Assembly (NCBI GenBank): GCA_016198705.1
Contig: JACQIA010000002.1
Span: 1,521 to 65,520 of the forward strand
Direction: 5' to 3'
Origin: Candidatus Aenigmatarchaeota archaeon
GTDB lineage: Archaea; Aenigmatarchaeota; Aenigmatarchaeia; CG10238-14; SCSR01
Length of the DNA stretch: 64,000 bases
Positions within the stretch are counted from its first letter, which is position 1. Each line of letters opens with the position of its first letter. This document shows positions 1 to 55,299 of the stretch, piece after piece. Made by a program: the position numbers and the translations under genes. The notes under the pieces are model-generated. The model worked only from the letters and a program-made list of their open reading frames with translations, searched no databases and had not been told where the DNA came from.

Positions 1-1108
1 CTGTCTTGCTCCTTATTGCATCGCCAAATTTCGACTTTATCATGTGAAAGACTGTTTCAGCATTTGACCTCTTGTGGTAGTGTTCTGTGAACTCGCCGTG
101 CTTATACATGAAATAATACCACATCTTATGCCAAGTCGAAGAGCCATTGGCTCTCGGTGTTGTATTCTTTTTGAACGGGATATACGGCATAGCCCCGATT
201 TCTTTTATAGCATCCAAGTTGTTCCTTGAACTGTAACCCATGTCCGCACTCAATTCCTTAATCTGAAAATGCTCTGATGTTTCTATCATCAAAGGCTGTA
301 GGAACTTTGTATCATGTTCGTGTGCTGTTGTTACCTGTAATGCCGTGACTATGTTCGTCTTAACGCCACTCATTACATGAGCCTTCAACCATTTTCTGAT
401 ATTCTTCTCTTTACCGTATTTGTAATCAAACCAACGGTCAAACCTTGATGTTGAAAACCCAGTAGAGTCTACTGTAAAGTCTTGTTCTACCGATTTCAAA
501 GGCAGACTGGATATTGTGATTAATTCCTTTATTACCTGTGTTAACTCTGGATTTTCCATGTAGTATGCGACACTTGAGTAATGCGGGACTTTTCGGATAT
601 ATCCAAATTCTTGTGCGATCTTCATGTCTGATGTGAATCTTCTTAGTGAGAATGTTGTAAATACTTTGAGAGCAGATGAAAATACCATATCTGATAGAAG
701 TAACTTTGGTCTACCGAAAACATACTGCGGTTGCTGTATGGTCTTGCACAAGTCATTCAGTAATTTCAGGAACAACTCCTTTTGTTGGGTTTGCGATTTG
801 TCGTAAGCTACCCAGTCTTGGGAATAAGTCACCTTTTTAGTAACTGTAATATTACCTTGTTCGTCAATTTGCTTCTTTACAATTATTTCCACTGCAAACT
901 GATGTTTGCACTTAATCCGTCTCTTTTCAAAATCGGGGCATGAGCAAGTAGGCATGTCTTTCTCTAATTTCACAGTATAAGAACCGTTGCCTGTTTGGGA
1001 CGGCACAAGCCACTTGTCGCCCAAATAAGTAAGCTTTGAAGATTTGACAATCTCTTTACCTCTTAATTTTCTATCTTCAAGCAGTTGGTTATAGTCCATT
1101 TCAATCAT
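1..1108 (-). CDS. DDE transposase, IS4/IS5 family, N-terminal SWIM zinc finger; 3' end (C-terminus) cut by the window
   Basis: Own translation of the minus strand gives MIEMDYNQLLEDRKLRGKEIVKSSKLTYLGDKWLVPSQTGNGSYTVKLEKDMPTCSCPDFEKRRIKCKHQFAV ... SADMGYSSRNNLDAIKEIGAMPYIPFKK ... HYHKRSNAETVFHMIKSKFGD, which carries the YREK motif. Confidence 0.7.
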   Translation of the reverse strand, partial: MIEMDYNQLLEDRKLRGKEIVKSSKLTYLGDKWLVPSQTGNGSYTVKLEKDMPTCSCPDFEKRRIKCKHQFAVEIIVKKQIDEQGNITVTKKVTYSQDWVAYDKSQTQQKELFLKLLNDLCKTIQQPQYVFGRPKLLLSDMVFSSALKVFTTFSLRRFTSDMKIAQEFGYIRKVPHYSSVAYYMENPELTQVIKELITISSLPLKSVEQDFTVDSTGFSTSRFDRWFDYKYGKEKNIRKWLKAHVMSGVKTNIVTALQVTTAHEHDTKFLQPLMIETSEHFQIKELSADMGYSSRNNLDAIKEIGAMPYIPFKKNTTPRANGSSTWHKMWYYFMYKHGEFTEHYHKRSNAETVFHMIKSKFGDAIRSKT

Positions 1109-1120
1109 CACTACCTATAC

Positions 1121-1140
1121 TATATACCTTTAGGTATATA
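1121..1140. promoter_or_regulatory. Perfect 8-bp inverted repeat (TATATACC-TTTA-GGTATATA) in the divergent region between the transposase and the Zn-ribbon ORF; TATA-box-like
   Basis: Read directly from the sequence; it lies 13 nt upstream of the transposase ATG. Confidence 0.3.
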
Positions 1141-1229
1141 TACTTAACAGTAGTTCACTTCCGATGGCATTAGGCTTATAAGCATCGTATACCATATTTA
1201 TATTACTCAAGTGATTGAGGTAAAGTATC

Positions 1230-1397
1230 ATGATAGAATGCCCTAAGTGCCACCATAAATGGGATAACCGCCTCGAATGCAAGAGGTGCGGTCACAAGTG
1301 GTATCAAAAAACATCTGAATTGCCAGAAGTATGTCCCAATCCAGAATGTAAAAGCCCATACTGGAACAAACCAAGGAAAAAGAAGGGGAAGGCATGA
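1230..1397 (+). CDS. Small zinc-ribbon protein (55 aa, CPKC...CKRCGH...CPNPEC)
   Basis: ATG at 1230 and TGA at 1395-1397, overlapping the methyltransferase ATG at 1394. Translation is MIECPKCHHKWDNRLECKRCGHKWYQKTSELPEVCPNPECKSPYWNKPRKKKGKA. It falls below the 60-aa cut-off of the ORF track. Confidence 0.4.
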   Translation: MIECPKCHHKWDNRLECKRCGHKWYQKTSELPEVCPNPECKSPYWNKPRKKKGKA

Positions 1398-2302
1398 AAG
1401 CCGAAGTGGGATTGCAAGGGTTTAAAACTACGAGAGAGATTATTCTAAATGATTACATGCAGATAAGACTAGACGGAAAAGTAAACGGCACAAGAATACC
1501 ACAGCCATTCTTAAAATGGGCTGGTGGCAAAAGGAATCTCATCAATGAAATTCTTGGCAAACTGCCTGAAAAATTCAACAATTATCACGAGCCTTTTATC
1601 GGCGGGGGAGCGGTTTTCTTTGCGGTTGGAAACAAGGCAAATCATTCTACAATTTCGGACAGCAATCTCGAGCTAATCATGACTTTCAAGGTAATACAGA
1701 AGAACCCAAAAGCACTCATCGAGAAACTGAAAATACACGCATCGAAGCACTCTGAAAAATATTTTAGTGAGATAAGGGGACAAGAACCTGCAGATCCAAT
1801 AGACATAGCCTCACGCATGATATACCTGAACAAGACCTGCTACAACGGGTTATATCGGACAAATAAGAATGGCAAATTCAATGTCCCTTTCGGGAAAAAC
1901 AACAGCCCCAACATTGTGCAAGAAGAAAATATTTTATCATGCCACGAGTTTCTGAAAGATACTAAAATATTATTCGGGGATTTTGAGACAATAAATCCGC
2001 AGAAGGGCGATTTTGTGTATTTAGATCCGCCCTACCACCCCACGGGCGAAATGTCCTTTACAAAATACACGAAGGAAAACTTCACGGAAAGAGACCAGTT
2101 GAGATTAAGGGACTTCATAGCAAGGCTGACAAAGAATGGCGTTTTTGTCATGCTGTCAAACTCTAATACAAAGTTCATAAATGATTTGTATGGCGACAAG
2201 AAGTTCAAGAAAGACATAGTGCTGTCGCCCAGATTCATAAACTGCAAACCGAACGAAAGAAACGAAGTGGAAGAACTTTTAATTACAAATTACCAATTGT
2301 AG
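1394..2302 (+). CDS. N6-adenine DNA methyltransferase, Dam/D12 class (alpha group)
   Basis: Motif I FLKWAGGKRNLI and motif IV DPPY (YLDPPYHPT) in Dam-like order; 302 aa. Confidence 0.85.
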   Translation: MKAEVGLQGFKTTREIILNDYMQIRLDGKVNGTRIPQPFLKWAGGKRNLINEILGKLPEKFNNYHEPFIGGGAVFFAVGNKANHSTISDSNLELIMTFKVIQKNPKALIEKLKIHASKHSEKYFSEIRGQEPADPIDIASRMIYLNKTCYNGLYRTNKNGKFNVPFGKNNSPNIVQEENILSCHEFLKDTKILFGDFETINPQKGDFVYLDPPYHPTGEMSFTKYTKENFTERDQLRLRDFIARLTKNGVFVMLSNSNTKFINDLYGDKKFKKDIVLSPRFINCKPNERNEVEELLITNYQL

Positions 2303-2305
2303 CTT

Positions 2306-2764
2306 ATGAAACAAGGGACATACGCAAACTATACAGGAGATAAACTTCAAAAATTTATTTTCAACAATCTTGTTGAGAAAGGATATACCTTAATAGACAG
2401 GAAGAAATTCGACTCTTCGAAATACCTTGAACAGCCTATATTTGCAACTGAGTATACCGTTGGGAAAAGCATATACGAGACTAAGATTGATTGTGATTTT
2501 ATAATATTTCACCCTAAAAAATTCCCGAATTGCCTGATTATAGAGTCCAAATGGCAAGAATCTACTGGCTCAGTTGACGAAAAGTTTCCTTATCTTGTTT
2601 ACAATATCAAGAAATGCTACCCATGTGCTACAATTGTTGTCTTGGACGGCGGGGGCTACAAAAAGGAAGCTGAGCAGTGGCTGAGAAAACAAGTTGGCGG
2701 TAAGCTCGTCAAGGTGCTAAACATGAGGGAATTTCAGAAGTGGTCTAACAGCGAAGAATTATGA
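2306..2764 (+). CDS. Predicted PD-(D/E)xK nuclease, candidate cognate restriction endonuclease of the Dam-like methyltransferase
   Basis: 152 aa with E...IDCDFIIF...LIIESKWQ fitting the (P)D...ExK catalytic pattern. It starts 4 nt after the methyltransferase stop, so the two are probably co-transcribed. Confidence 0.4.
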   Translation: MKQGTYANYTGDKLQKFIFNNLVEKGYTLIDRKKFDSSKYLEQPIFATEYTVGKSIYETKIDCDFIIFHPKKFPNCLIIESKWQESTGSVDEKFPYLVYNIKKCYPCATIVVLDGGGYKKEAEQWLRKQVGGKLVKVLNMREFQKWSNSEEL

Positions 2765-3544
2765 GTTCAACAAATCTTGTTTTAAAGCTTCTAAAAAGGC
2801 TTTTATATCAATCAGAAGTTTTTCTTGCAATGCCAAAAATTCACTTGAGTTCAGTCCTATAACACTACTTTTACCCGCATATTTCAAACAGCTCTGAGCA
2901 ACGAGTCTTTTTGTCTTTTCTGGATCATCTACCAAGTCTAGATCATGCACGGGAAATGTTCTTAGGTGTTTGATATGAAATATAATAAAATCATCTATGC
3001 TTTTAGATTCACCGTTTTCAATAATTGTATAGAACTTTTTTGGTATTCGAAGATGACGCTCTTCTGATGCACCTTCATAAAATATCTTATATAATGCCAC
3101 AATAAATTTTTGAAAGTGTTCTTGAGTTTTAACTGGTATACGAATTTGACTAAAACTTGCCAGTGAAGTATGTGTCACTCTAAAAATGACTCCAGTTTCC
3201 TTTGATTCGGAGAGATTATTACAATCGGAAATTAAAATTCCTAACTCATCAGATAACTTTCCAAATAATTGAGCTTTTCCATGATGAACAGAACCAATAA
3301 GCCTGTATTCAGACGATTCACTAAAAATGAATTTAGGTATTTTATCATTCTCAATTTCGTTGTTTATTTTCTGTAATAAAGCAGTCCTAACAAGGGGCAA
3401 ATTTTTTTCTAATATGCTTGAAACTTCTAATTCCTCGCTAACGCCAGTTGCTCGGATAATTTCCGATATTTCACTCTCTAAATCAATAGTTTTAGTATCG
3501 GGTAGGTTCCATATAGTAGTTACAATATCTTCATAAGATATCAT
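2759..3544 (-). CDS. Hypothetical protein (261 aa), downstream partner of the ParB-like gene with a 4-nt overlap
   Basis: Complete ORF overlapping the upstream gene by ATGA; no motif recognised. Confidence 0.4.
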   Translation of the reverse strand: MISYEDIVTTIWNLPDTKTIDLESEISEIIRATGVSEELEVSSILEKNLPLVRTALLQKINNEIENDKIPKFIFSESSEYRLIGSVHHGKAQLFGKLSDELGILISDCNNLSESKETGVIFRVTHTSLASFSQIRIPVKTQEHFQKFIVALYKIFYEGASEERHLRIPKKFYTIIENGESKSIDDFIIFHIKHLRTFPVHDLDLVDDPEKTKRLVAQSCLKYAGKSSVIGLNSSEFLALQEKLLIDIKAFLEALKQDLLNS

Positions 3545-4650
3545 TTTATTCCCAATGCTTTTAAATGAGCTTCTACAATTTTTTTCAAATCGTTAAGCAA
3601 ATCCACAAACTTCTCAGAACCATTCGATAGTTTTATTTTAACATCAGGTAGATTCTCTATCTGGGAATTTAATTCTTTTAATTTCCTTAGCCACTCCTCA
3701 AGTTCTTTCGGCTCTTCTTCCAAATTCCATATTTCATATTTAAGGCGGTTTATATGCATATCAACACTCGATTCAAACTTCTTGAAAAGACTTGGATAAT
3801 TAACCATGGCTTTTGCCACAAAATCTCGAACATCATTAGATCGTTCAATCCTTGGCGGATTACCTTCAACACTGACTATCCAAGATAGATATTTTCTAAG
3901 ATTCTCGATGTTTTTGAAATGTTTCTCCTTTTCATCCCATTCAAGCCATTGTTGTATAGGGGTGTTTATTGCTGTGAAAATGGCTTCTTGAAAGAAGCTG
4001 AAATCGTCTTCCTTCAGATATTCACCAAATTCTTCATCTTGAGTGCTTTGTTCATACGCATAATAAGAACGCATCAATCTTGCTGACTTTATAGAACCTA
4101 TACCAACTGCTTTTCCAGCGTCTTCTATTTTAATCTTCCTCTCTTTAACAAGTTTTATTAATAATTTTGCCTGTTGATACGGTTTCCAATTTTTAATGCC
4201 AGATATGTGCCTTATACCTTGAATTATCCAAGCTATATCAGGTTCCTTACCTTTGTAGACATAGACGGTAAATCGCAAAATGCTGTTCAGAACAGCATCA
4301 GATAGTTCTATCTCCCCACTCTCATGCTCTATCTTCAATTGTTTTATTGCCGTTATTCTTCTGTTACCTTCTACTACTACATATTTTTTTGAGTCTGCAA
4401 TACGTCTTACTACAATTTTATCTATTGGTAAAAAACCAACTCGTTTGATATTTTCTTTCAATTCTTCTATACCAAAATCGTGCATTTTTTCAAAACATGT
4501 TCTTTGTATACTTTCTTCGATTATTCTGCTATCCGATACAAGCTTTTCTTTTCCAGAGAATCTTGGATTGTTCGGATCTAAAAATACATCTTCTAAGTTT
4601 ACTTGTCTTTCTTCAAAATCGTTTAAATCAATTATTTCGTTACCATTCAT
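3541..4650 (-). CDS. ParB/sulfiredoxin-fold (ParB-like nuclease / DUF262-like) domain protein, 369 aa
   Basis: The N-terminal segment LPIDKIVVRRIADSKKYVVVEGNRRITAIKQL matches the ParB N-domain / DUF262 core (hydrophobic-x-DG-QQR/ERR-x-TA). The long C-terminal part is helical with no recognised domain. Confidence 0.55.
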   Translation of the reverse strand: MNGNEIIDLNDFEERQVNLEDVFLDPNNPRFSGKEKLVSDSRIIEESIQRTCFEKMHDFGIEELKENIKRVGFLPIDKIVVRRIADSKKYVVVEGNRRITAIKQLKIEHESGEIELSDAVLNSILRFTVYVYKGKEPDIAWIIQGIRHISGIKNWKPYQQAKLLIKLVKERKIKIEDAGKAVGIGSIKSARLMRSYYAYEQSTQDEEFGEYLKEDDFSFFQEAIFTAINTPIQQWLEWDEKEKHFKNIENLRKYLSWIVSVEGNPPRIERSNDVRDFVAKAMVNYPSLFKKFESSVDMHINRLKYEIWNLEEEPKELEEWLRKLKELNSQIENLPDVKIKLSNGSEKFVDLLNDLKKIVEAHLKALGIK

Positions 4651-4701
4651 AGTGAAACCCTTTTAATAATCTAATAAATAGAATTAAATCTTAAGAGTTT
4701 T

Positions 4702-4932
4702 ATGGCTGGTCAATATGAGCAGTTAAGCTGTCCCTTCTGCGACAAAGGCAAGATCCAATGTTTGTATTTTCCAAGTGCATGGAGTGTGAAAGCCAAAAGA
4801 ACAAAGACCTTGCCTGGGAGCGGTTCTGTTAGCAAAAGTGCTGAGGTGTGGATAATTAAAACTGGCTGTTCTGCATGTGGTAAATCCCAAGAAGAAGTTG
4901 AAAAGGAATTTAGGGATAAGGGAATTATTTAG
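4702..4932 (+). CDS. Small zinc-ribbon protein (CPFC...CSAC), 76 aa
   Basis: MAGQYEQLSCPFCDKGK...IKTGCSACGKSQ; divergent from the ParB-like operon. Confidence 0.35.
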   Translation: MAGQYEQLSCPFCDKGKIQCLYFPSAWSVKAKRTKTLPGSGSVSKSAEVWIIKTGCSACGKSQEEVEKEFRDKGII

Positions 4933-5167
4933 ACTTTTTCAACAGAATTTCGACTAAATCAACAGAAGCTACTTATTCAACAAAGCTTGTAGCAGACTAT
5001 TTTCGTGTACGAAAAATATCAGTTTTCAGACGGAATTTGTATTCAGAGTGGCTGATGGTGTTTGGAATTGAAAGGGGGAAATAGGGCGTTGTTTGGCTGA
5101 ATAAGGTTGTTTTTGGCTGATTAGAGGAACGGCAGTGATTGAAGGATGATGGAGATGGGATGGCATG

Positions 5168-6877
5168 TCAATTGCCTTCAAGCTTGGCTATTCTAGCTTT
5201 CAGCGCATCATTCTCAGCTTTCAAATCTTTGAGTGCCTGGAGCATGAGATAGGGAAGCTCCTCATTATGAATTTGCTTAATCCCATCCTTTTCTGTCACC
5301 AGTTCAGGAAGATATTGCTCTACCTGTTGGGCAATTAATCCGATCTGTGTTTCATTGCCCATGTGCATTTCAGGATATTCGTCTGAACGCCATTGGAAGT
5401 ATACTGGTTGTAATTGTGTTACTTTATCCAATACTGATGGTAATGGGGCAATATTTTTCTTGAGTTTTATATCTGAAGAACATGTGCCTGCTAGTATAGT
5501 TCCATCAGCATCTTTAACGCATCCTGTAGTTCCGGTGCCGACACGGATGTCGCCACTAACGTCTAGTTTATCTAGTGGCGCTGTTTTTCCGATGCCGACG
5601 TTGCCGGTGCTTGCAATTATTCCCAACAGTACATTTGCATTTGAATCTTGGAAAGAAAAATCTGATGCACTGCCAGCTGATTTGAAGTGAATTCCTCTAC
5701 TGGCTACAGCGGTGGTATATAAGCCTCTTTTGTTGAGAGGGCTGGTAGCACTACTATCATCGGTGGACATTGTGCCGCGTAACCCCTCGCTGGAGTGGAC
5801 ACCAATAGTGCCAAGCACACTTAACTTTTCGCTTGGAGATGCCGTCCCGATGCCGACGTTGCCCGACGTATCAATATCAATCCTGCTGAGACCATTGGTT
5901 CGTAAGCTAAGTGGGTGATTGGTTAAAGTACCTATGAGAGCATCCGTATCTCTCGATCTTAAAAATATAGTACTCCCCCCAGTCGTGCTCACTTTGATAG
6001 TTGGTTCTGTTGTTCCACCGCCACTGACTTCAAGCTTGCTACTTGGCGTCGTCGTCCCAATTCCGACGTTGCCTGATGGCGTTATAACCATCCGACTCTG
6101 TGCACCGCCAGTGCCTCCAGTTCTAAACTCAAGGTCCCCAACACCACTAGTTCCTGTTGGAGTGCCGCTTCCTATCGCGGCAGAAAAGCTTGTTGCAGTA
6201 TCACCAAAGAGAATTAGATTGTACGAACTAGATGGAGAAAGAAATTGAAGAGTTGGAACTGCGCTGTCTTCAATAAGAACATCTGTGCCTGAAGAGGAGC
6301 TTAACCCGGAAGCGCCACCAAACACGTGTAATTTTTTTGCCGGACTCGTAGTCCCGATGCCGACGCTGCCATCATCCTTGATGACCGCCAAATCACTTCC
6401 AGCGGAGCTTTGGAAATAAATGCCGTCTGGTCCTGCCGCAACAACACTTGGTACAAATAATATTGCTGGAGAGGAAATTATCTTCATAATCTGTCCTAGT
6501 ACAGTTATTATTGCTGTACTGCACATGCTGGATGTACACAATCTTAGAGTATGTTTGCCTTCTGGCAGGGATGATAGTGCTTGTATTGTTGCTGTTTGTC
6601 CTGGGGGAATTGGGAATGGGGAGATTAATAGATCAACAGGATTGCCAGCTTCAGTGGCTTTGATTTCTTTTATCGCATCTGTGCCGCTATTTATGACAGT
6701 AATGGTGTCTTTGAATGCATCAACCACTGAGAATGCTGTTGAAGTTTTGCTGGTAAAAACGCCGGAAATAAATGAATAACTAAATCCAACCAAACCAATT
6801 GTAATTATTAGTATCAATAAGGTGCCTATTATCGAGGATATTGCTTTGGCCTCTTTTTTGATTTTCATACCCATCAC
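5168..6877 (-). CDS. Surface fibre protein: class III (type IV pilin-like) signal peptide + GNVGIGTTxPxxKL tail-fibre-like repeats + C-terminal peptidase S74 intramolecular chaperone domain
   Basis: The N-terminus MKIKKEAKAISSIIGTLLILIITIGLVGFSY is a pilin-type signal. There are at least four repeats of the form GNVGIGTT(S/T/A)PxxKLxV. The C-terminus SSDIKLKKNIAPL...QIGLIAQQVEQYLPELV...LPYLMLQALKDLKAENDALKARIAKLE matches the endosialidase/tail-spike auto-cleaving chaperone domain (SDxRxKxNI ... GLIAQEVEEVLPELV). Confidence 0.8.
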   Translation of the reverse strand: MMGMKIKKEAKAISSIIGTLLILIITIGLVGFSYSFISGVFTSKTSTAFSVVDAFKDTITVINSGTDAIKEIKATEAGNPVDLLISPFPIPPGQTATIQALSSLPEGKHTLRLCTSSMCSTAIITVLGQIMKIISSPAILFVPSVVAAGPDGIYFQSSAGSDLAVIKDDGSVGIGTTSPAKKLHVFGGASGLSSSSGTDVLIEDSAVPTLQFLSPSSSYNLILFGDTATSFSAAIGSGTPTGTSGVGDLEFRTGGTGGAQSRMVITPSGNVGIGTTTPSSKLEVSGGGTTEPTIKVSTTGGSTIFLRSRDTDALIGTLTNHPLSLRTNGLSRIDIDTSGNVGIGTASPSEKLSVLGTIGVHSSEGLRGTMSTDDSSATSPLNKRGLYTTAVASRGIHFKSAGSASDFSFQDSNANVLLGIIASTGNVGIGKTAPLDKLDVSGDIRVGTGTTGCVKDADGTILAGTCSSDIKLKKNIAPLPSVLDKVTQLQPVYFQWRSDEYPEMHMGNETQIGLIAQQVEQYLPELVTEKDGIKQIHNEELPYLMLQALKDLKAENDALKARIAKLEGN

Positions 6878-7223
6878 TTTTTCAAAAGATCCCGGAAAAA
6901 ATCATCCCAAGTATATCTCCTTTTTGCATTCTTTGAGCCGAGAATCAGCTTTTCTTTCCTGAGAACTTCAAAAGTGTCGTCTCTTACGCTTATTATAGCT
7001 CGTGACATTTTATCATTTCATGGAATTTTATTATTTAATTAATTTAATGCATATCATGATTTTTATTCATTTATATGATTTCATGTATATAATGGATTTG
7101 ATAAAAAAGCATAAATACAGTTCACTAGATATTATGCCCCATTTGACTGGTTGCCAAACTGCAGAATGGATGACCGAATTTGGGCTTTTTTAATAGTTTA
7201 CCTTCCAATTAACATTAGATTCT

Positions 7224-7643
7224 ATGAACGAGAAGGAATTGCAGGAAAAGATATTCGCTTACAGGCTTTTCGAGTCTAGATTAGACGCTTTGTTAAAGCA
7301 AAGGGACATGCTTATAAATAAACTTATGGAGTTGCAATCAACGATAAATAGCATCGAAGATTTGCACAAATCCGAAGGCGAGATTATCTTCCCCATAGGT
7401 AGCGGGGCGTACAAGGTAGCCAAAACAATCGATAAAGATAATGTGATAGTAGAAATTGGTGCTAATGTCGCCTTAGAGAAAACTGCTGAAGAAGGCAAAG
7501 CTACACTCAATAAAAGAAAGAGTGGGCTTGAAAATTCTATCAACCAGCTGCAGCAGGAGATTTTAAAGGTTTCCAATGCAGTTAATCAACTCGGTCCAGA
7601 GCTACAGGATTTGGCTAAAGAATTTCAGCAACAGGCTGGTTAA
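7224..7643 (+). CDS. pfdA: Prefoldin alpha subunit
   Basis: 139 aa with coiled-coil N- and C-termini and a central beta region. It lies immediately upstream of ftsY, overlapping as TAAATG, which is the conserved archaeal pfdA-ftsY arrangement. Confidence 0.6.
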   Translation: MNEKELQEKIFAYRLFESRLDALLKQRDMLINKLMELQSTINSIEDLHKSEGEIIFPIGSGAYKVAKTIDKDNVIVEIGANVALEKTAEEGKATLNKRKSGLENSINQLQQEILKVSNAVNQLGPELQDLAKEFQQQAG

Positions 7644-8777
7644 ATGTTCGGTCTTTTAAAAAAGAAATTATCAAAAGTAGTCGAATCCATTTCTGATAAA
7701 TTAAAAAAGAAGGATGCGGCTGCAGAAAAAATCGAAGAAGTAATTGAGCAAGCAGAAGATAAAAAGCCGGAAGAAATTTTAGAGCAAATCGAACCAGTAA
7801 AAGAAGAAATACCAGAAATAATTGAAGAAATAAAATCAGGTTTGGCAGAAAGCAAGAAAAAACCAGAAGAAACCAAATCTATTTTCAAAAAAATAAAAGA
7901 AAAAATAAAGAAAACATTGGTTGAAAAGACATTAACAGAGAAAGATTTGTTGCCTATTCTAGATGCTTTGGAGGTTGATTTGATAGAAGCAGATGTTGCA
8001 GTTGAAGTTGTGGTAAAAATAAAGCAAAGTTTGATAGAATCATTGGCTGGGAAAGAAATTAAGAAAGGCAAAGACAAGGAAATTGTTGCTAGCGCATTAA
8101 GGGAAAGTTTGTTGAAAATACTAGACGTTAAAGAGCTGGATTTAGAGGAGTTAATAAGACAAAAAAAGCCTTTAGTTTTGCTGTTCTTGGGCTTCAATGG
8201 CTCAGGTAAGACAACTTCATTGGCAAAATTTGGTAAAATGCTTAAGGATAAGGGCTATACTTGTGTCTTTGCCGCTTGCGATACATTTCGTGCAGCATCT
8301 ATCGAGCAGTTGGAAGAGCATGCGGGAAAAATAGGAGTTAAAATAATCAAGCACAAATATGGCGCTGACCCCGCCGCTGTATTATTTGATGCAATTGCTC
8401 ATGCCAAAGCAAATAACGTTGATGTGGTGTTGGCTGATACAGCCGGACGGGCCCATACAAACAGAAATTTGATGGAGCAGATGCAAAAAATCGTCAGAGT
8501 TAATAAGCCAGATTTGAAAATTCTTGTCATAGACTCTTTAACAGGGAACGATGCAATTACGCAGGCTAGAATTTTTAATGAGGCGGGTGTTGACGCATCA
8601 ATATTCACGAAAGTTGATGTGAACGAGAAGGGCGGGGCAATCCTGTCAGTCACTTATGAATTAAGCAAGCCCATTTTATTCTTAGGCTTGGGGCAGGAAT
8701 ACAATGATTTGGAGAAGTTTGACAAGGAAAAATTCGTCAGTAGTTTACTTGGGGAAAATCTTAAAAGTTCCAGTTAA
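7644..8777 (+). CDS. ftsY: Signal recognition particle receptor FtsY
   Basis: NG-domain motifs GFNGSGKTTS, DTAGR, TKVD..GGAIL; the N-terminus is acidic. Confidence 0.9.
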   Translation: MFGLLKKKLSKVVESISDKLKKKDAAAEKIEEVIEQAEDKKPEEILEQIEPVKEEIPEIIEEIKSGLAESKKKPEETKSIFKKIKEKIKKTLVEKTLTEKDLLPILDALEVDLIEADVAVEVVVKIKQSLIESLAGKEIKKGKDKEIVASALRESLLKILDVKELDLEELIRQKKPLVLLFLGFNGSGKTTSLAKFGKMLKDKGYTCVFAACDTFRAASIEQLEEHAGKIGVKIIKHKYGADPAAVLFDAIAHAKANNVDVVLADTAGRAHTNRNLMEQMQKIVRVNKPDLKILVIDSLTGNDAITQARIFNEAGVDASIFTKVDVNEKGGAILSVTYELSKPILFLGLGQEYNDLEKFDKEKFVSSLLGENLKSSS

Positions 8778-8790
8778 TTAGTTTTTAATT

Positions 8791-10116
8791 ATGTTGAATA
8801 GCCTAAGCAAAGGACTGGGAAACCTAATAAGGAAATTAATTACAGGCACAACTATCGATAAGGTCGCAGTAGAAGAAACCCTCCGCGATATGGAAACAAT
8901 ATTATTGCAATCCGATGTTGACGTAAATCTAACAGGAGAACTTTTGGCAAATATAAGGAAAAAATGTTTGGACGAAAAGATTCCTCCAGGTTTAACTCTA
9001 AGGGAACATGTTTTGAAGGTAATTTACGAAGAGCTAATAAGACTTTTGGGTGAAAAACCCGTAGGTTTATTGGGCAAAAGAAAAATAATGCTCGTGGGTT
9101 TGTTTGGGTCAGGTAAAACTACTACGGCCGGTAAACTCGGCAAGTATTTCTTGAAACAGGGATTGAAGCCAGTTTTTATAGGATTGGACTACCACCGCCC
9201 CGCTGCGGCAGATCAAATAATGCAGATAGGTAAACAAATTGGTATACCTGCATACGTCGAAGATAACAAGGATCCCTATTCAACTGCAAAAAATGCATTA
9301 GAAAAATTCGCTAAAAACGATGTTTTAATTTTCGATACAGCTGGCAGGAATGCTTTGGATATAGAATTGGCTGATGAACTGAAGAAATTAGGCGAAATAA
9401 TAAAACCTGATGAAGTGGTTTTAGTAATCCCTGCCGATTTGGGAAAAGTTGCTAAGCAGCAATCAGAAGAATTTCACAAATTGGTTGGGATAACCGGTGT
9501 GATAATAACCAAGATGGATGGAACTGCCAAGGCTGGCGGGGCGCTTGCAGCTACTTCAACAACAGGCGCTAAGGTAAAGTTCATTGGTGTTGGAGAGAAG
9601 ATAGAAGATTTGGAATTGTACGATCCAACTAGATTTGTTTCAAGGTTGCTTGGACTGGGTGATTTGCAGACATTGCTTGAAAAGGCAAAAGAAGTGGAGA
9701 TTAAGAAAGAATCTGTGGAGAAAATCGCAGAAGGAAAATTTACGCTGCAAGACTTTTACGAGCAGATAGAAGCCATGGGAAAGATGGGGCCATTGAGCCA
9801 GATTGCGAATATGATTCCTGGTATGGGGATGATGAAATTGCCGGAGGGTATGCTGGAAAAGCAGGAGGGAAAATTGAAGTCATTCAAAATTATAATCCAG
9901 AGCATGACAAAAGAAGAACGCGAGTATCCTGAAATTATCAATAATAAAAGAATTGCTAGAATAGCCAAGGGTTCTGGCAGAAGTGAAGCTGATGTAAGGG
10001 AACTGCTGACCCAATACAACCAGATGAAGAAGCTGTTCAAGTCTATGGGTGGAATGAAGGGTTTGCAAAGAGGGGCACTCAAAAATATATCAAAACAGTT
10101 TGGGTTTAAATTCTAA
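8791..10116 (+). CDS. srp54: Signal recognition particle protein SRP54
   Basis: GLFGSGKTTT, DTAGR, TKMDGTAKAGGAL, and a Met-rich M-domain (GMGMMKLPEGM). Confidence 0.9.
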   Translation: MLNSLSKGLGNLIRKLITGTTIDKVAVEETLRDMETILLQSDVDVNLTGELLANIRKKCLDEKIPPGLTLREHVLKVIYEELIRLLGEKPVGLLGKRKIMLVGLFGSGKTTTAGKLGKYFLKQGLKPVFIGLDYHRPAAADQIMQIGKQIGIPAYVEDNKDPYSTAKNALEKFAKNDVLIFDTAGRNALDIELADELKKLGEIIKPDEVVLVIPADLGKVAKQQSEEFHKLVGITGVIITKMDGTAKAGGALAATSTTGAKVKFIGVGEKIEDLELYDPTRFVSRLLGLGDLQTLLEKAKEVEIKKESVEKIAEGKFTLQDFYEQIEAMGKMGPLSQIANMIPGMGMMKLPEGMLEKQEGKLKSFKIIIQSMTKEEREYPEIINNKRIARIAKGSGRSEADVRELLTQYNQMKKLFKSMGGMKGLQRGALKNISKQFGFKF

Positions 10117-45890: not shown

Positions 45891-47540
45891 TTAATTTATC
45901 CTCAATACAGCTGTATTGCATGTGCTAGTTGTGCACATCTTTAAAGTATGAGTGCCTTTTGATAATTGATTGTATATCTTCATTGTTGCTATTTCGCCTG
46001 GGTTTATTTGGGAGCCTGTGTCGTAATTGGCTTTAATTTCTTGTGCTGTCAGCGCCCGATTGTAAATCCTCACTTCATCTAGTTGTCCATTAAATTTGTT
46101 GAAGCCCGCAGTAACCGACCCCATAGCAAGAGGAACCCCTACATCGGACTGACCAACTCCTGTTGGAGTGAGTACCTCATCGAGGGGGAGCACTACTCCG
46201 TTCTTATAGAGTATGGGATCATTACCAACCGAATCTTGGTTATAAACTACGGTATAGAATGCTGGCGTACCAACCTCAACCGGTTGATTAACTGTTATCC
46301 ATTGACCGGTTCCTGTAGTGAAGAGTTTGACAAGGGCTAGATCCCTAGCAGTACCCGCGAAAGCAGATGAAAAATAGATTCTCCATCCTACACCATCATC
46401 CTTTCCAAGGATATCCATGTTATTGGCTGGCGGTGCAGTAGCAGATGCCCAAAATTCTACTGTTCCTCCTCCAACGAAAATATTTTGGATACTAGAATGA
46501 TCCGTGACAGAAACTATATCATTCACTCCGTCAAAAGCTTTAGCAGCCCCGTATTTCCCCTTTACAATATTATGCCTATCATTAGCGTCATTATTAAAAT
46601 TATACCACGCTACACTTCTGCTAACAGGATATGTATAATTCATATCTTCTTGGATTTCTGATTGTGACAATGCTCTGTTGTAAATGCGCACTTCGTCGAT
46701 GGTGCCGTTAAAATAGCTGCCTGCGTTTCCACCGTCATCCCTTTTTCCTATGGTAGCTGTTGTGGCTATTGTATTGATGGCTACGCTGAAAGTTCCGCTC
46801 GCGGCTGAAACGCCATTCAGATAATAGTTCCAAGCGCTTCCCGAAAGGGTGAATGCGACGTGATTCCAACTGCCGTTAGTTGGAAGCTGTGAGCCAGAAA
46901 TAATTATGTTGTTTGCGCCATTTATTCCGTCAGTAAAGACATAAATATTTCCCCCCACAGTAGCGAATTGAAATATGAAGCTTTGAGCAGCGGCGGCAAC
47001 GTTATTGAGGGCGAACACTGTTCCACCGGGATTCAATTTGTTGGGCATAATCCACGCCTCGATAGTCCTGCTGGAAGCGCCTATCGGAAGGTCAGTTATG
47101 CTGCTTACGTTGACATAATCATCCACACCGTCAAACTGCAATGCATTCCCATACTGCCCGCTAGCAAATCCAGCCCCATTTATCGTCCCGTCATTAAAAG
47201 TCTCCCCATTGAATGTTCCTGTGTTTCCTTTACCAGAAGAATCTGTAGCAGTTATCCTATCCAATTCATCCATCTTCCAATACCCAACCGAAGAATTATC
47301 CTGCTTAGACATACGATAAACAGCATCACTCCCGTCTATCTTCACACTTCTAAAAGCAGTTATCGGCGCAGTCCCGTCATTGCTTATGGTAACAGTATCG
47401 CTGAACGCATCAACCACATAAAACACTTCAGCAGTCTTTGTAGTAAACACACCAGAAATATAAGTATAGCTGAATCCAAACAAGCCAATTGTGATTATCA
47501 GCACTAGTAAAGTAGCTATAATTGAGGAAATGCCTTTCAT
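45891..47540 (-). CDS. Pilin-signal surface protein with two LamG/ConA-like lectin domains (putative adhesin)
   Basis: N-terminus MKGISSIIATLLVLIITIGLFGFSY is a class III signal. The two LamG signatures are GNALQFDGVDDYVNV...IEAWI...NHVAFT...GTIDEVRIYNRALSQSEI and later GQLDEVRIYNRALTAQEI. Confidence 0.7.
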   Translation of the reverse strand: MKGISSIIATLLVLIITIGLFGFSYTYISGVFTTKTAEVFYVVDAFSDTVTISNDGTAPITAFRSVKIDGSDAVYRMSKQDNSSVGYWKMDELDRITATDSSGKGNTGTFNGETFNDGTINGAGFASGQYGNALQFDGVDDYVNVSSITDLPIGASSRTIEAWIMPNKLNPGGTVFALNNVAAAAQSFIFQFATVGGNIYVFTDGINGANNIIISGSQLPTNGSWNHVAFTLSGSAWNYYLNGVSAASGTFSVAINTIATTATIGKRDDGGNAGSYFNGTIDEVRIYNRALSQSEIQEDMNYTYPVSRSVAWYNFNNDANDRHNIVKGKYGAAKAFDGVNDIVSVTDHSSIQNIFVGGGTVEFWASATAPPANNMDILGKDDGVGWRIYFSSAFAGTARDLALVKLFTTGTGQWITVNQPVEVGTPAFYTVVYNQDSVGNDPILYKNGVVLPLDEVLTPTGVGQSDVGVPLAMGSVTAGFNKFNGQLDEVRIYNRALTAQEIKANYDTGSQINPGEIATMKIYNQLSKGTHTLKMCTTSTCNTAVLRIN

Positions 47541-54436: not shown

Positions 54437-54891
54437 GCAGCAACACCAGCAGTAGAACAAAATGCACTTCCAGTCACTGGTGAAGCCCCAGTTGCAGATG
54501 CTCTTAATCTATAGGTTCCAATTGTAGCAGCGTTTGGTCTATCTAAACCAACTGTAGTATCGGTATCAGCATCGTCAGGACAAGCTCCTGAAGTCCCAGG
54601 AGCTATGCTAGTTATGGAACAACTTCCTGCAGCAACACCAGCAGAATCTGTGGCACTTACTGTGACAGTACCACTTGGAGATGTACCTTCATTCCTAACA
54701 GTAATATCTATATCATCTCCAGCACACGTTGCATCAAGAATATCTAAAACCACACCAGTTCTCGAACTTACAACACCGCTAAGATAAGTATAAGCAAAAC
54801 CAGCCAAAGCTATAGTTATCACAAGCATCAAAAGAGTCGCTATTACGGTTGATATACCTTTTTTCATATTATCACTTTTTAAGTACTGCAA
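54433..54891 (-). CDS. Secreted pilin-like protein (archaeal class III signal, Gly/Ala/Thr/Ser-rich)
   Basis: KKGISTVIATLLMLVITIALAGFAYTY; the mature part is GATS-rich with Cys pairs. Confidence 0.6.
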   Translation of the reverse strand: MQYLKSDNMKKGISTVIATLLMLVITIALAGFAYTYLSGVVSSRTGVVLDILDATCAGDDIDITVRNEGTSPSGTVTVSATDSAGVAAGSCSITSIAPGTSGACPDDADTDTTVGLDRPNAATIGTYRLRASATGASPVTGSAFCSTAGVAA

Positions 54892-54894
54892 TCT

Positions 54895-55299
54895 TTATAC
54901 GCCTGCAGTCGAGCAAAATACTGTTCCACTAGCTGGCGCTGCTCCAGCTGCACTTACGCTTAATGAGTTAGTTCCTGTCCCTCCAATGGCTCGATTGGCC
55001 GTGCATTCACCAGAAAGTCCGGGATTTACAGATGCAATTGTACAAGAACCGGCAGCAGTAGTTCCATCAGGCTGTGTAGCCGATACAGTTATATCTCCAC
55101 TAGGTGCAGTTCCTTCATTCCTGACACCAACAGTTATTGAATCACCAACACAGCTTGATTTAATAAGACCCAAAACTACACCAGTTCTGGCAGTTGTAGT
55201 TCCTGTAATGTATGTATAAGCAAAACCTACCAATGCTATAGTTATCACAAGCATCAAAAGAGTCGCTATTACTGTAGAAACACCCTTTTTCATAAGCAT
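54895..55299 (-). CDS. Secreted pilin-like protein, tandem paralogue of the previous gene
   Basis: MKKGVSTVIATLLMLVITIALVGFAYTY; the signal peptide is near-identical to the neighbouring gene's. Confidence 0.6.
   Translation of the reverse strand: MLMKKGVSTVIATLLMLVITIALVGFAYTYITGTTTARTGVVLGLIKSSCVGDSITVGVRNEGTAPSGDITVSATQPDGTTAAGSCTIASVNPGLSGECTANRAIGGTGTNSLSVSAAGAAPASGTVFCSTAGV

Follow-up and report, generated by a model that had tools for sequence, protein, structure and literature searches.

The window (the whole stretch of 64,000 nucleotides that was analysed) belongs to a Candidatus Aenigmarchaeota MAG. The genes considered here lie at its left edge, in positions 1 to 4950 and at the end of the contig, and are separated from pfdA by three further ORFs (4702 to 7008). 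An ORF check confirmed the coordinates of every ORF listed for this island. The features are:

1108 to 2 (listed as 2 to 1108), minus strand: IS5-like DDE transposase with an N-terminal SWIM zinc finger (Pfam, NCBIfam, YREK motif)
1109 to 1229, no strand: divergent intergenic region between the transposase and the Zn-ribbon/methyltransferase operon, with an AT-rich palindrome at 1125 to 1152
1230 to 1397, plus strand: 55-aa Zn-ribbon ORF with four CxxC-type pairs and a basic tail (NCBI: hypothetical protein HY361_00035)
1394 to 2302, plus strand: Dam/DpnM-like N6-adenine DNA methyltransferase, predicted target GATC (Pfam, NCBIfam, PADLOC)
2306 to 2764, plus strand: 152-aa PD-(D/E)xK nuclease of family PF20472, predicted minimal restriction enzyme
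1394 to 2764, plus strand: module 1, restriction-modification
2759 to 3544, minus strand: 261-aa partner of the ParB-like protein
3541 to 4650, minus strand: 369-aa ParB/Srx-like protein, first gene of its operon, overlapping the partner gene by 4 nt
2759 to 4650, minus strand: module 2, candidate defence operon of the ParB-like protein and its partner
4702 to 4932, plus strand: 76-aa CxxC...CxxC ORF, divergent from the ParB-like gene (NCBI: hypothetical HY361_00060)

The transposase is visible over 369 aa, the rest lying beyond the left edge of the window. Pfam gave matches to DDE_Tnp_1 (1.2e-19) and SWIM (1.4e-07), the top NCBIfam match was IS5_2 (3e-34, under the cut-off for a partial sequence) and the YREK signature (Y-x2-R-x3-E-x6-K) can be read directly in HYHKRSNAETVFHMIK. 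An earlier note on this DNA had described a truncated IS4/IS5 transposase with a SWIM finger and a YREK motif; the enzyme is IS5-like and both motifs are present, but it is cut by the window edge and not biologically. As its C-terminus extends past the window, the ends of the IS are out of view. The same note had placed the Zn-ribbon ORF downstream of the transposase, which is on the minus strand, and the two are in fact divergent. Related transposases (41-46% identity) likewise flank the homologues of the island in loci L084 and L168.

The sole Pfam match of the 55-aa ORF was a sub-threshold one to Zn_ribbon_4 (0.0038), and a comparable Zn-ribbon ORF 5' of the methyltransferase was absent from 70 other loci. 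This ORF is lineage-specific and no conserved component of the restriction-modification cassette. Its reported overlap with the methyltransferase gene takes the form of an ATGA if the latter starts at 1394, but is lost with the NCBI annotation, which starts at Met22 (position 1457) and gives 281 aa. Homology to other Dam enzymes begins only near residue 35, so the start is not fixed. The 76-aa ORF at the other end gave no match in the family libraries and is not kept beside the ParB homologues in L083, L086 and L168; its membership of the island is uncertain.

The assignment of a D12-class adenine methyltransferase was confirmed by matches to Pfam D12 (3.8e-58), TIGR00571 dam (1.3e-80) and PADLOC MTase_II (3.3e-88), and the closest solved structure is that of M.DpnII DpnM (2dpm, 6.5e-62). 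Residues K9, Y119, N120, L122, R124 and P134 of EcoDam are kept in the alignment; two contact residues differ (R137K and Y138N), which leaves some doubt about specificity for GATC. Among the 256 tetranucleotides, none is as strongly depleted in the window as GATC (86 occurrences against 219 expected, z = -11); at other host loci its depletion is only moderate (median observed/expected 0.84). Another GATC system elsewhere in the genome could be an alternative source of the depletion in the window.

The 152-aa gene follows after a spacer of 3 nt, rather than the 4 nt first given. Its product had been proposed as a putative PD-(D/E)xK enzyme, either a minimal restriction enzyme or another nuclease, a proposal against which the lack of a nuclease fold or of linkage to methyltransferases, or an orphan methyltransferase, was to count. 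Fold and linkage were both found, and the methyltransferase is no orphan. The protein matches Pfam PF20472 PDDEXK_11 (5.3e-37) and gives a confident PD-(D/E)xK structure model, its nearest solved structures being type II restriction enzymes, and a Dam-like methyltransferase gene lies directly 5' on the same strand in 70 of 80 homologous nuclease loci (in genomes from many phyla). PF04556 (DpnII) does not detect the window protein itself; some homologues do reach this model (6 of 34, 3 of them above the gathering score), all six aligning to profile positions 141-274 of 278, the C-terminal half. The N-terminal domain of DpnII/MboI has been described as a separable module (PMC3710099). The profile matches of its homologues show that the 152-aa nuclease corresponds to the catalytic C-terminal half of DpnII/MboI enzymes and has no counterpart of this separable domain; together with the methyltransferase it most likely constitutes a minimal DpnII-like restriction-modification system.

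In 58 of the 70 paired loci the alignments of the two genes are at most 111 nt apart, and the two genes diverge from the window copies in a correlated way (r = 0.69, n = 66). The mobility of the pair is demonstrated: in 24 of these loci an IS1595 transposase lies 5' and the pair is carried as cargo by the IS1595 element, which has inverted repeats of 22 bp and target duplications of 8 bp. A 2.3-kb unit is present twice in each of two genomes (the copies being 100% identical in one and 99.8% in the other), with 22-bp terminal inverted repeats and target duplications of 8 bp that differ between copies. Most loci of the pair carry no transposase, and neither an IS1595 transposase nor an IS1595-type inverted repeat was found in the window.

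The "ParB-like pair" of the earlier note proved half right, as the 369-aa protein is ParB-like and the 261-aa protein is not. For the former, ParB_N was matched under the gathering score (8.1e-05) and PADLOC gave PDC-M38A (1.5e-45, profile positions 8-258 of 715) and PD-Lambda-5_A (about 1e-12); its family has invariant DPNNPR and EGNRR motifs. A same-family partner gene follows the ParB-like gene in 58 of the 60 metagenome loci that have a downstream ORF, the two being fused in L139, and Mrr_cat is present in all ten partner proteins tested. The 261-aa partner in the window is without Mrr_cat and matches nothing in the family libraries, PADLOC included. Its N-terminal domain of ~95 aa is common to the Mrr-nuclease partners of relatives. 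Its C-terminal domain is helical, carries an R195-x4-H200 motif (R195, H200 and D201 are near-invariant) and recurs on GmrSD-like, NACHT and AAA proteins. This comparison shows a swap, in the window lineage, of the Mrr-type nuclease for a helical domain. The AlphaFold model of the 261-aa protein has a pLDDT of 86; the protein gave no significant fold match and no HEPN family match, with AbiV at E about 0.7-1. The motif resembles that of HEPN, and the C-terminal domain is a HEPN-like candidate effector. The 261-aa gene accompanies the ParB-like gene on four other contigs, and the neighbourhoods of ParB operons contain DndB, restriction-modification and other defence genes.

It is probable, in our estimation, that the left edge of the contig is a composite mobile defence island made up of the transposase, the restriction-modification cassette and the ParB-like operon, and that the last two are independent cassettes, together here and in one related contig. 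The mobile defence island of the earlier note is thus supported, the nuclease fold, the linkage to methyltransferases and the mobility of the pair having all been found. Islands of this type are well known, but two of the protein families in this one are uncharacterised. The Dam/DpnM-like enzyme would methylate adenine in the DNA of the host, with GATC as the most likely site, and the 152-aa protein, presumably as a homodimer, would cut the same site if unmethylated in incoming DNA. The ParB/Srx-fold protein is likely to resemble those of GmrSD-type enzymes and PD-lambda-5 in acting as a subunit for NTP-dependent DNA binding or sensing, with the partner delivering a putative Mrr-type DNA nuclease in most relatives and a possibly active helical HEPN-like domain here.

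Alternatively, all four genes could be one PD-lambda-5-type 'RM+Abi' system, in which the methyltransferase marks self DNA and the ParB-like protein and its HEPN-like partner form an abortive-infection arm dependent on, or controlled by, the same methylation. PD-lambda-5 has been described as a compacted RM+Abi system (PMC9519451), and there are HEPN families whose operons also encode a ParB nuclease and a DNA methylase (PMC3710099). Many PD-Lambda-5_A models match the ParB-like protein, but only in its N-terminal part, and PD-Lambda-5_B matches the methyltransferase (6e-12), though far less well than ordinary type II models do (3e-88). The four-gene block recurs in the same convergent order in L084 (66% nucleotide identity), L168 has a D12 methyltransferase remnant directly 5' of the ParB gene and L086 has Vsr and a C5 methyltransferase upstream. 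In the narrow subfamily of the 261-aa protein (p261) a DNA methyltransferase is adjacent on 4 of 5 contigs, which hints at functional coupling and speaks against independence. On the other hand, the ParB pair is absent from all 80 nuclease loci, including the 70 with a Dam-nuclease pair, the ParB operon is found in about 55 loci of which few carry a D12 methyltransferase, and the two operons are convergent and not co-transcribed. A single system is unlikely.

We consider it still less probable that the 152-aa protein is a methyl-directed or structure-specific nuclease beside a regulatory Dam, serving repair (MutH/Vsr-like) or transposon movement (TnsA-like). Some family members count against the restriction-modification reading and would suit such a role: a 170-aa Chloroflexi subfamily and many viral copies of PF20472 are without an adjacent Dam-like methyltransferase, and several Chloroflexi MAGs have an intact nuclease gene beside a methyltransferase gene with a frameshift at a poly-G tract. 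GATC also lies inside both terminal inverted repeats of some IS1595 units, but it is missing from the repeats of several elements, and most loci of the pair are without a transposase. The homology is to DpnII itself and no link to MutS/MutL was seen. Moreover, the exchange of the tight pair between Archaea and many phyla of bacteria, at 45-68% identity, follows the pattern seen with selfish restriction-modification cassettes and argues against a non-restriction role. A ParB-type partition or plasmid-maintenance pair from an integrated plasmid is a very improbable origin for the minus-strand genes. ParB box-like motifs are present and there are weak matches to ParB_N, parB_part, Noc and RepB, but the partition-family scores are all far under the cut-offs and the top matches are defence models; no ParA gene is nearby, the neighbours are defence genes, and what is conserved as the partner is an effector protein of nuclease type, not ParA.

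Two independent cassettes remain the preferred reading, and each resembles known systems. The restriction-modification pair is most like DpnII/MboI (GATC; methylase DpnM, nuclease DpnB): the order is methylase then nuclease on one strand, DpnM is the best solved relative of the methyltransferase, homologues of the nuclease fit the C-terminal half of DpnII, and the window strongly avoids GATC, the predicted target. It differs in the size of the nuclease (152 aa vs about 280 aa, without the N-terminal domain) and in being without a second methylase like DpnA. PvuII has 157 aa. It and other very small homodimeric PD-(D/E)xK type IIP enzymes share the similar size, single core and one methyltransferase, and show that 152 aa suffices for a functional restriction enzyme. 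Elements of the IS1595 family carry passenger genes, and the 24 related loci with methylase-nuclease cargo are of this type, whereas the pair in the window adjoins an IS5-like SWIM-DDE transposase with its ends off the window. A passage of PMC2853133 cites Siguier et al. 2009 among reports of IS-flanked restriction-modification or solitary methylase genes.

The 369-aa protein shares its N-terminal ParB/Srx-like region, and the adjacent D12 methyltransferase, with PD-lambda-5/PDC-M38, but that part alone matches, the 261-aa partner matches no PADLOC model and, unlike in PD-lambda-5, the methyltransferase belongs, together with a nuclease of its own, to a separate convergent operon. PD-lambda-5 is an experimentally validated defence system of E. 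coli prophages. GmrSD, BrxU and SspE (ParB-like DUF262 NTPase plus nuclease) likewise combine a ParB/Srx fold with a nuclease effector, the partner in relatives of the window operon being Mrr-type, and the C-terminal domain of the window partner is elsewhere fused to GmrSD_N with HNH or GmrSD_C. Here, however, the system consists of two separate genes, no GmrSD_N match is seen for the ParB-like protein and the effector is not a recognisable nuclease. HEPN effectors of the MAE_28990 family and the Swt1-like clade share operons with ParB nucleases and with DNA methylases (Anantharaman et al. 2013, PMC3710099). The window domain differs from these in having neither a Pfam HEPN match nor a significant structural match, but like them it is helical, has the R-x4-H motif and is encoded in an operon whose ParB-like gene lies beside a methylase, and the domains to which it is fused (DUF262 with HNH, STAND, TPR) correspond to those described for HEPN.

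The left edge of the window carries a group of genes corresponding to locus tags HY361_00035 to HY361_00060 of a Candidatus Aenigmarchaeota MAG (exact-sequence match; 65,586-bp contig, of which about 1.6 kb lies outside the window). Their positions were taken from the ORF map, supplemented for the transposase by translating bases 1-1300 in six frames:

1108..2, - strand, transposase, 369 aa visible, running off the window edge
1230..1397, + strand, Zn-ribbon ORF, 55 aa
1394..2302, + strand, methyltransferase, 302 aa
2306..2764, + strand, 152-aa protein (PF20472)
2759..3544, - strand, 261-aa protein
3541..4650, - strand, 369-aa protein (ParB-like)
4702..4932, + strand, CxxC ORF, 76 aa

Beyond the CxxC ORF lie the gene of a surface protein (569 aa), an ORF of 44 aa, pfdA and ftsY, in that order. 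The surface protein (5168-6877, - strand) combines an N-terminus of the archaeal class III signal/pilin type (UpsA-like, 2.3e-08) with tail-fibre-like repeats, and its C-terminal domain is a Peptidase_S74 intramolecular chaperone. Pilin N-termini paralogous to its own are encoded near 47340-47537, 54682-54882 and 55129-55287.

The transposase has DDE_Tnp_1 and SWIM domains (Pfam), its best NCBIfam match is IS5_2 and the YREK signature can be read in its translation, so that the IS4/IS5-type transposase with SWIM and YREK motifs which the earlier note had placed at this edge is indeed there. No second copy of it was found within the 64-kb window, a search for repeats delimiting the island gave only short matches at chance level, and the window holds no tRNA genes. 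The source MAG is not a member of the representative-genome set, and the other contigs carrying the island genes were all short Logan assemblies that end inside the transposase, so that neither the IS ends nor a target duplication was found in them. The Zn-ribbon ORF was considered as a conserved controller of the cassette and rejected, since the methylase has no such ORF upstream in any of 70 further loci. Its overlap with the methyltransferase gene depends on the start codon chosen, because NCBI starts the methyltransferase at Met22.

The methyltransferase belongs to the Dam family: it matched Pfam D12 (3.8e-58), PADLOC MTase_II (3.3e-88) and TIGR00571 dam (1.3e-80, 271 bits, cut-off 115). 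Among solved structures M.DpnII (DpnM, 2dpm, 6.5e-62) is the nearest relative and E. coli Dam the next; FxGxG and DPPY motifs can be seen when the protein is aligned with DpnM. The D12-class adenine methyltransferase named in the earlier note is thereby confirmed. In EcoDam-DNA structures the residues contacting GATC are K9, Y119, N120, L122, R124, P134, R137 and Y138. Alignment with EcoDam showed that the first six are kept in the window protein and that R137 is replaced by K and Y138 by N. From the kinship with Dam and DpnM and the mostly kept contact residues GATC is the likely target; the replacements at R137 and Y138 leave this short of certain.

A side observation comes from Chloroflexi MAGs, in many of which (L033, L035, L040, L044, L046, L048, L049, L054, L056, L057, L058 and L069, at about position 9300 of the 20-kb loci) the gene of the Dam-like methylase contains a poly-G tract, 8-17 nt long, at one shared codon immediately past motif I. 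Depending on the genome, the tract keeps or breaks the reading frame, which resembles a phase-variation switch; for long-read assemblies, the frame differences may instead be homopolymer assembly errors.

The 152-aa protein matched PF20472 (PDDEXK_11) over residues 7-149 (5.3e-37, 127 bits, cut-off 23.7), as did all 34 of its aligned homologues, and had no matches in NCBIfam, PADLOC, PHROGs or the PDB sequences. Homologues of equal size (45-68% identity) number more than 120, in hosts that include Patescibacteria, Methanosarcinales, Dehalococcoidia, Bacteroidota and other groups. D64, K82-W83-Q84 and D91-E92-K93 are invariant in the family and E80 is nearly so; D64, E80 and K82 make up a canonical D...ExK site. 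The protein thus has a restriction-type catalytic fold with intact active-site residues, on a polypeptide separate from the methyltransferase.

A relationship with DpnII emerged from the homologues. PF04556 (DpnII) gave no match to the window protein at E <= 1, and matched six of the 34 homologues, three of them above the gathering score. Because these matches all fall within positions 141-274 of the 278-position profile, the PF20472 family is the catalytic C-terminal half of DpnII/MboI, and the N-terminal domain of these enzymes is absent from the 152-aa protein and its homologues. In a published domain analysis (PMC3710099), roughly the first 100 residues of DpnII and MboI are described as a domain that is separable and is found on other defence proteins as well. 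No report of PF20472/PDDEXK_11 itself was found in the literature. The PF20472 match, the D...ExK site and the reach of the homologues into the DpnII model favour the first of the two options in the earlier note, a minimal restriction enzyme rather than a different nuclease, and PvuII, at 157 aa, is a precedent for its size. Together, the methylase would methylate GATC and a dimer of the 152-aa protein would cleave GATC that is unmethylated.

The genomic context of the nuclease was surveyed in 80 PF20472 loci from representative genomes. A Dam-like methyltransferase was present upstream on the same strand in 70, and in 58 of these the aligned matches to the two proteins were at most 111 nt apart. 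The other ten comprised gene remnants or contig edges, one convergent methylase, and a Chloroflexi subfamily of 170 aa that has no methylase next to it. The identity of the methyltransferase gene to its window copy correlates with that of the nuclease gene (r = 0.69, n = 66). The linkage of methyltransferase and nuclease, on which the pairing proposed in the earlier note turned, therefore extends to homologues across unrelated hosts. The 170-aa subfamily (L052, L062, L072, L074 and L076, in Chloroflexaceae and Roseiflexaceae) carries an insertion, adjoins ABC-transporter-like genes and may be a domesticated or solitary form. A different arrangement was seen in the viral contig L254 (1917-3456; similar copies in L252-L259), in which a 363-aa ORF overlaps the following PF20472 nuclease gene by 8 nt. 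This ORF has a ParB-like N-terminus (DGHHR) and, in its C-terminal half, DPCS...NPPYG motifs typical of adenine methylases; the methylase domain had no informative match in PDB or phage searches. Judged from these motifs, the viral nuclease would be paired with a methylase of a different type.

In 24 loci an IS1595-family transposase lies directly upstream of the pair. Transposase, methylase and nuclease form a unit of 2.3 kb, which occurs in two copies in each of two genomes, from Dehalococcoidia and Nitrosomonadaceae (copies 100% and 99.8% identical):

8158-10468 of L064, IS1595-family unit
8158-10468 of L067, IS1595-family unit
8153-10479 of L078, IS1595-family unit
8155-10479 of L080, IS1595-family unit

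Inverted repeats of 22 bp, perfect in sequence (GGGAATTATATACTTGACGATC), bound the units; the repeat can be recognised in at least 14 loci, and the 8-bp target duplication differs at each insertion. This proves that the methylase-nuclease cassette is transposon cargo outside the window, and provides clean sequence-level proof of its movement between phyla. In the window, neither an IS1595 transposase nor inverted repeats of the GGGAATTATATAC... type flank the pair. When the repeats of ten loci (L053, L060, L063, L064, L066, L067, L071, L077, L078 and L080) were examined, a subset of the elements was seen to have GATC at the inner end of both terminal repeats (...TTGACGATC), others reading ...GACAGAC. 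Dam controls the transposition of IS10 and IS50, and an element with GATC in its ends and a Dam-like methylase of its own recalls that control.

Of all 256 tetranucleotides GATC is the most under-represented in the 64-kb window, with 86 occurrences where a Markov model predicts 219 (z = -11). In the flanks of the closest relatives the ratio of observed to expected was 0.32 (Methanosarcinales) and 0.42 (Bathyarchaeia), and in those of some bacterial loci it was 0.05-0.27. Across all these host loci depletion is moderate (median 0.84), with GATC among the three lowest palindromes in 17 of 59, so that avoidance in other hosts supports the predicted specificity weakly. The window itself avoids GATC; this fits restriction at that site and is indirect evidence for it. 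Next in depletion comes GGCC (71 occurrences, 137 expected, z = -7.2), a hint that some part of the genome may encode a GGCC-specific restriction system.

The 369-aa protein on the opposite strand belongs to a large family in which DPNNPR and EGNRR, corresponding to the ParB box motifs (PNxxPR-like and GxRR), are invariant. Its Pfam ParB_N score is 23.0 bits, under the cut-off of 26.3, and there were profile hits to Noc and to a ParB-like nuclease in the PDB (0.002). The box motifs place the protein, on sequence grounds, in the ParB/Srx superfamily. The N-terminal 258 of 715 positions of the PADLOC candidate PDC-M38A were matched (1.5e-45), as were many PD-Lambda-5_A models, over the N-terminal 90-215 residues only. 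A ParABS partition system was rejected, there being no ParA-like ORF in 1..8000 of the window and the scores with NCBIfam partition models lying far under their cut-offs.

The ParB-like gene and its downstream neighbour form a conserved operon. Among 83 loci (80 metagenome loci, together with L083, L084 and L086), 60 have an ORF immediately downstream, and in 58 of these an iterated profile assigned it to the family of the 261-aa protein (250-310 aa). Its neighbours are genes characteristic of defence islands, among them DndB, several DNA methylases, subunits of type I and III restriction systems and AAA_23. In L139 (5938-7833) a single 631-aa protein is a natural fusion of the ParB-like protein with an Mrr-type partner, which supports a physical partnership between the two. 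The possibility that the 261-aa protein is the C-terminal half of a split PDC-M38A was rejected, since this fusion matches only positions 11-364 of PDC-M38A and the partner proteins match other models instead.

The 261-aa protein had no match in PADLOC, PHROGs or NCBIfam and only seven detectable homologues, all of which, on contigs that are long enough, adjoin close relatives of the 369-aa protein. It shares its N-terminal ~95 residues with the partners in other loci. All ten distant partners tested have Mrr_cat (PF04471) at the C-terminus; it is absent from the window protein and its close relatives, in which the catalytic D and QxK positions are not conserved. Comparison of the partners demonstrates that the C-terminal domain, the putative effector, has been swapped in the window lineage. 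The new domain is helical in the model (pLDDT 86), and a search of 1.8 billion representative proteins located it at the C-terminus of many larger proteins, including GmrSD_N with HNH, GmrSD_N with GmrSD_C, NACHT-HEAT, AAA and TPR architectures. Across ~150 sequences, R195 (150/151), H200 (151/151) and D201 (144/150) fit the Rx4-6H pattern of HEPN domains. Since neither HEPN family models nor structural searches gave a significant match, the domain is best regarded as a candidate HEPN. The ParB-like protein would sense DNA in an NTP-dependent manner, and its partner would act as a nuclease, possibly an RNase.

The two operons meet at 2759-2764, where the 3' ends of the convergent nuclease and 261-aa genes share 6 nt, which leaves no intergenic region for a terminator. 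The G+C content of the ParB operon (2759-4650) is 32.7%, that of the restriction-modification genes (1230-2764) 39.7% and that of the whole window 37.8%, a difference consistent with separate origins of the two cassettes.

The question is then whether the methylase and the ParB module also function together, as they would in a system like PD-lambda-5, a compacted RM+Abi system (PMC9519451). This is a minority view, albeit a live one. A DNA methylase is adjacent in four of the five contigs of the narrow 261-aa subfamily: the same convergent order of methylase, nuclease, partner and ParB-like genes recurs in one other contig, L084 (66% nucleotide identity to window 1580-4660, with a homologous transposase, 41% identical, on the methylase side), L168 has remnants of a transposase and a D12 methylase directly upstream of the ParB pair, and L086 has Vsr and a C5 methylase in that position. 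The broad families, however, are clearly independent, and the ParB-like pair, the Zn-ribbon ORF and the SWIM transposase occur in none of the 80 nuclease loci. A member of PD-lambda-5 would be expected to match protein A over its full length and to have a methyltransferase B in the same operon; the window 369-aa protein matches A N-terminally only and the window methyltransferase lies in the convergent operon with a nuclease of its own. Membership of PD-lambda-5 was rejected on these two points. We conclude that the island is two cassettes travelling together.

Taken as a whole, the results allow a broader reading, which we consider possible though rather doubtful. In it a ParB/Srx sensor or NTPase and a partner with an exchangeable effector would constitute an undescribed, widespread two-gene defence family, in which Mrr has given way to a new HEPN-like domain in the window lineage, and PF20472 would be a family of half-size DpnII-type restriction enzymes missed by current defence-finding models. 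The swapped domain, possibly an RNase and also a module of GmrSD-like and STAND proteins, may by analogy with PD-lambda-5 be an abortive-infection arm coupled to the neighbouring methylase. 

The ParB module offers a natural experiment in effector swapping and is a candidate defence system. Should the PF20472 proteins prove to be active restriction enzymes, they would rank among the smallest known and the DpnII fold would function without its N-terminal domain; many Dam-like methylases of uncultured archaea and bacteria would then be parts of restriction-modification systems, not orphans. As PADLOC misses the 152-aa nuclease, a search dependent on it would list the window methylase without its partner.

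A type II restriction-modification system beside a transposase is ordinary. Relative to the libraries searched, what is new is PF20472 as the nuclease partner of Dam-like methylases, its identity as DpnII minus the N-terminal domain, and the carriage of the cassette on IS1595 elements; the ParB-plus-effector operon with its swapped domain is covered only in part by existing defence models. HEPN domains fused to ParB(DUF262)-HNH and STAND/TPR proteins have been described (PMC3710099), as has a HEPN family whose operons also encode a ParB nuclease and a DNA methylase, and the C-domain of the window protein is found in comparable settings, on GmrSD_N-HNH, NACHT and TPR proteins. The findings extend known kinds of system and do not overturn current understanding.
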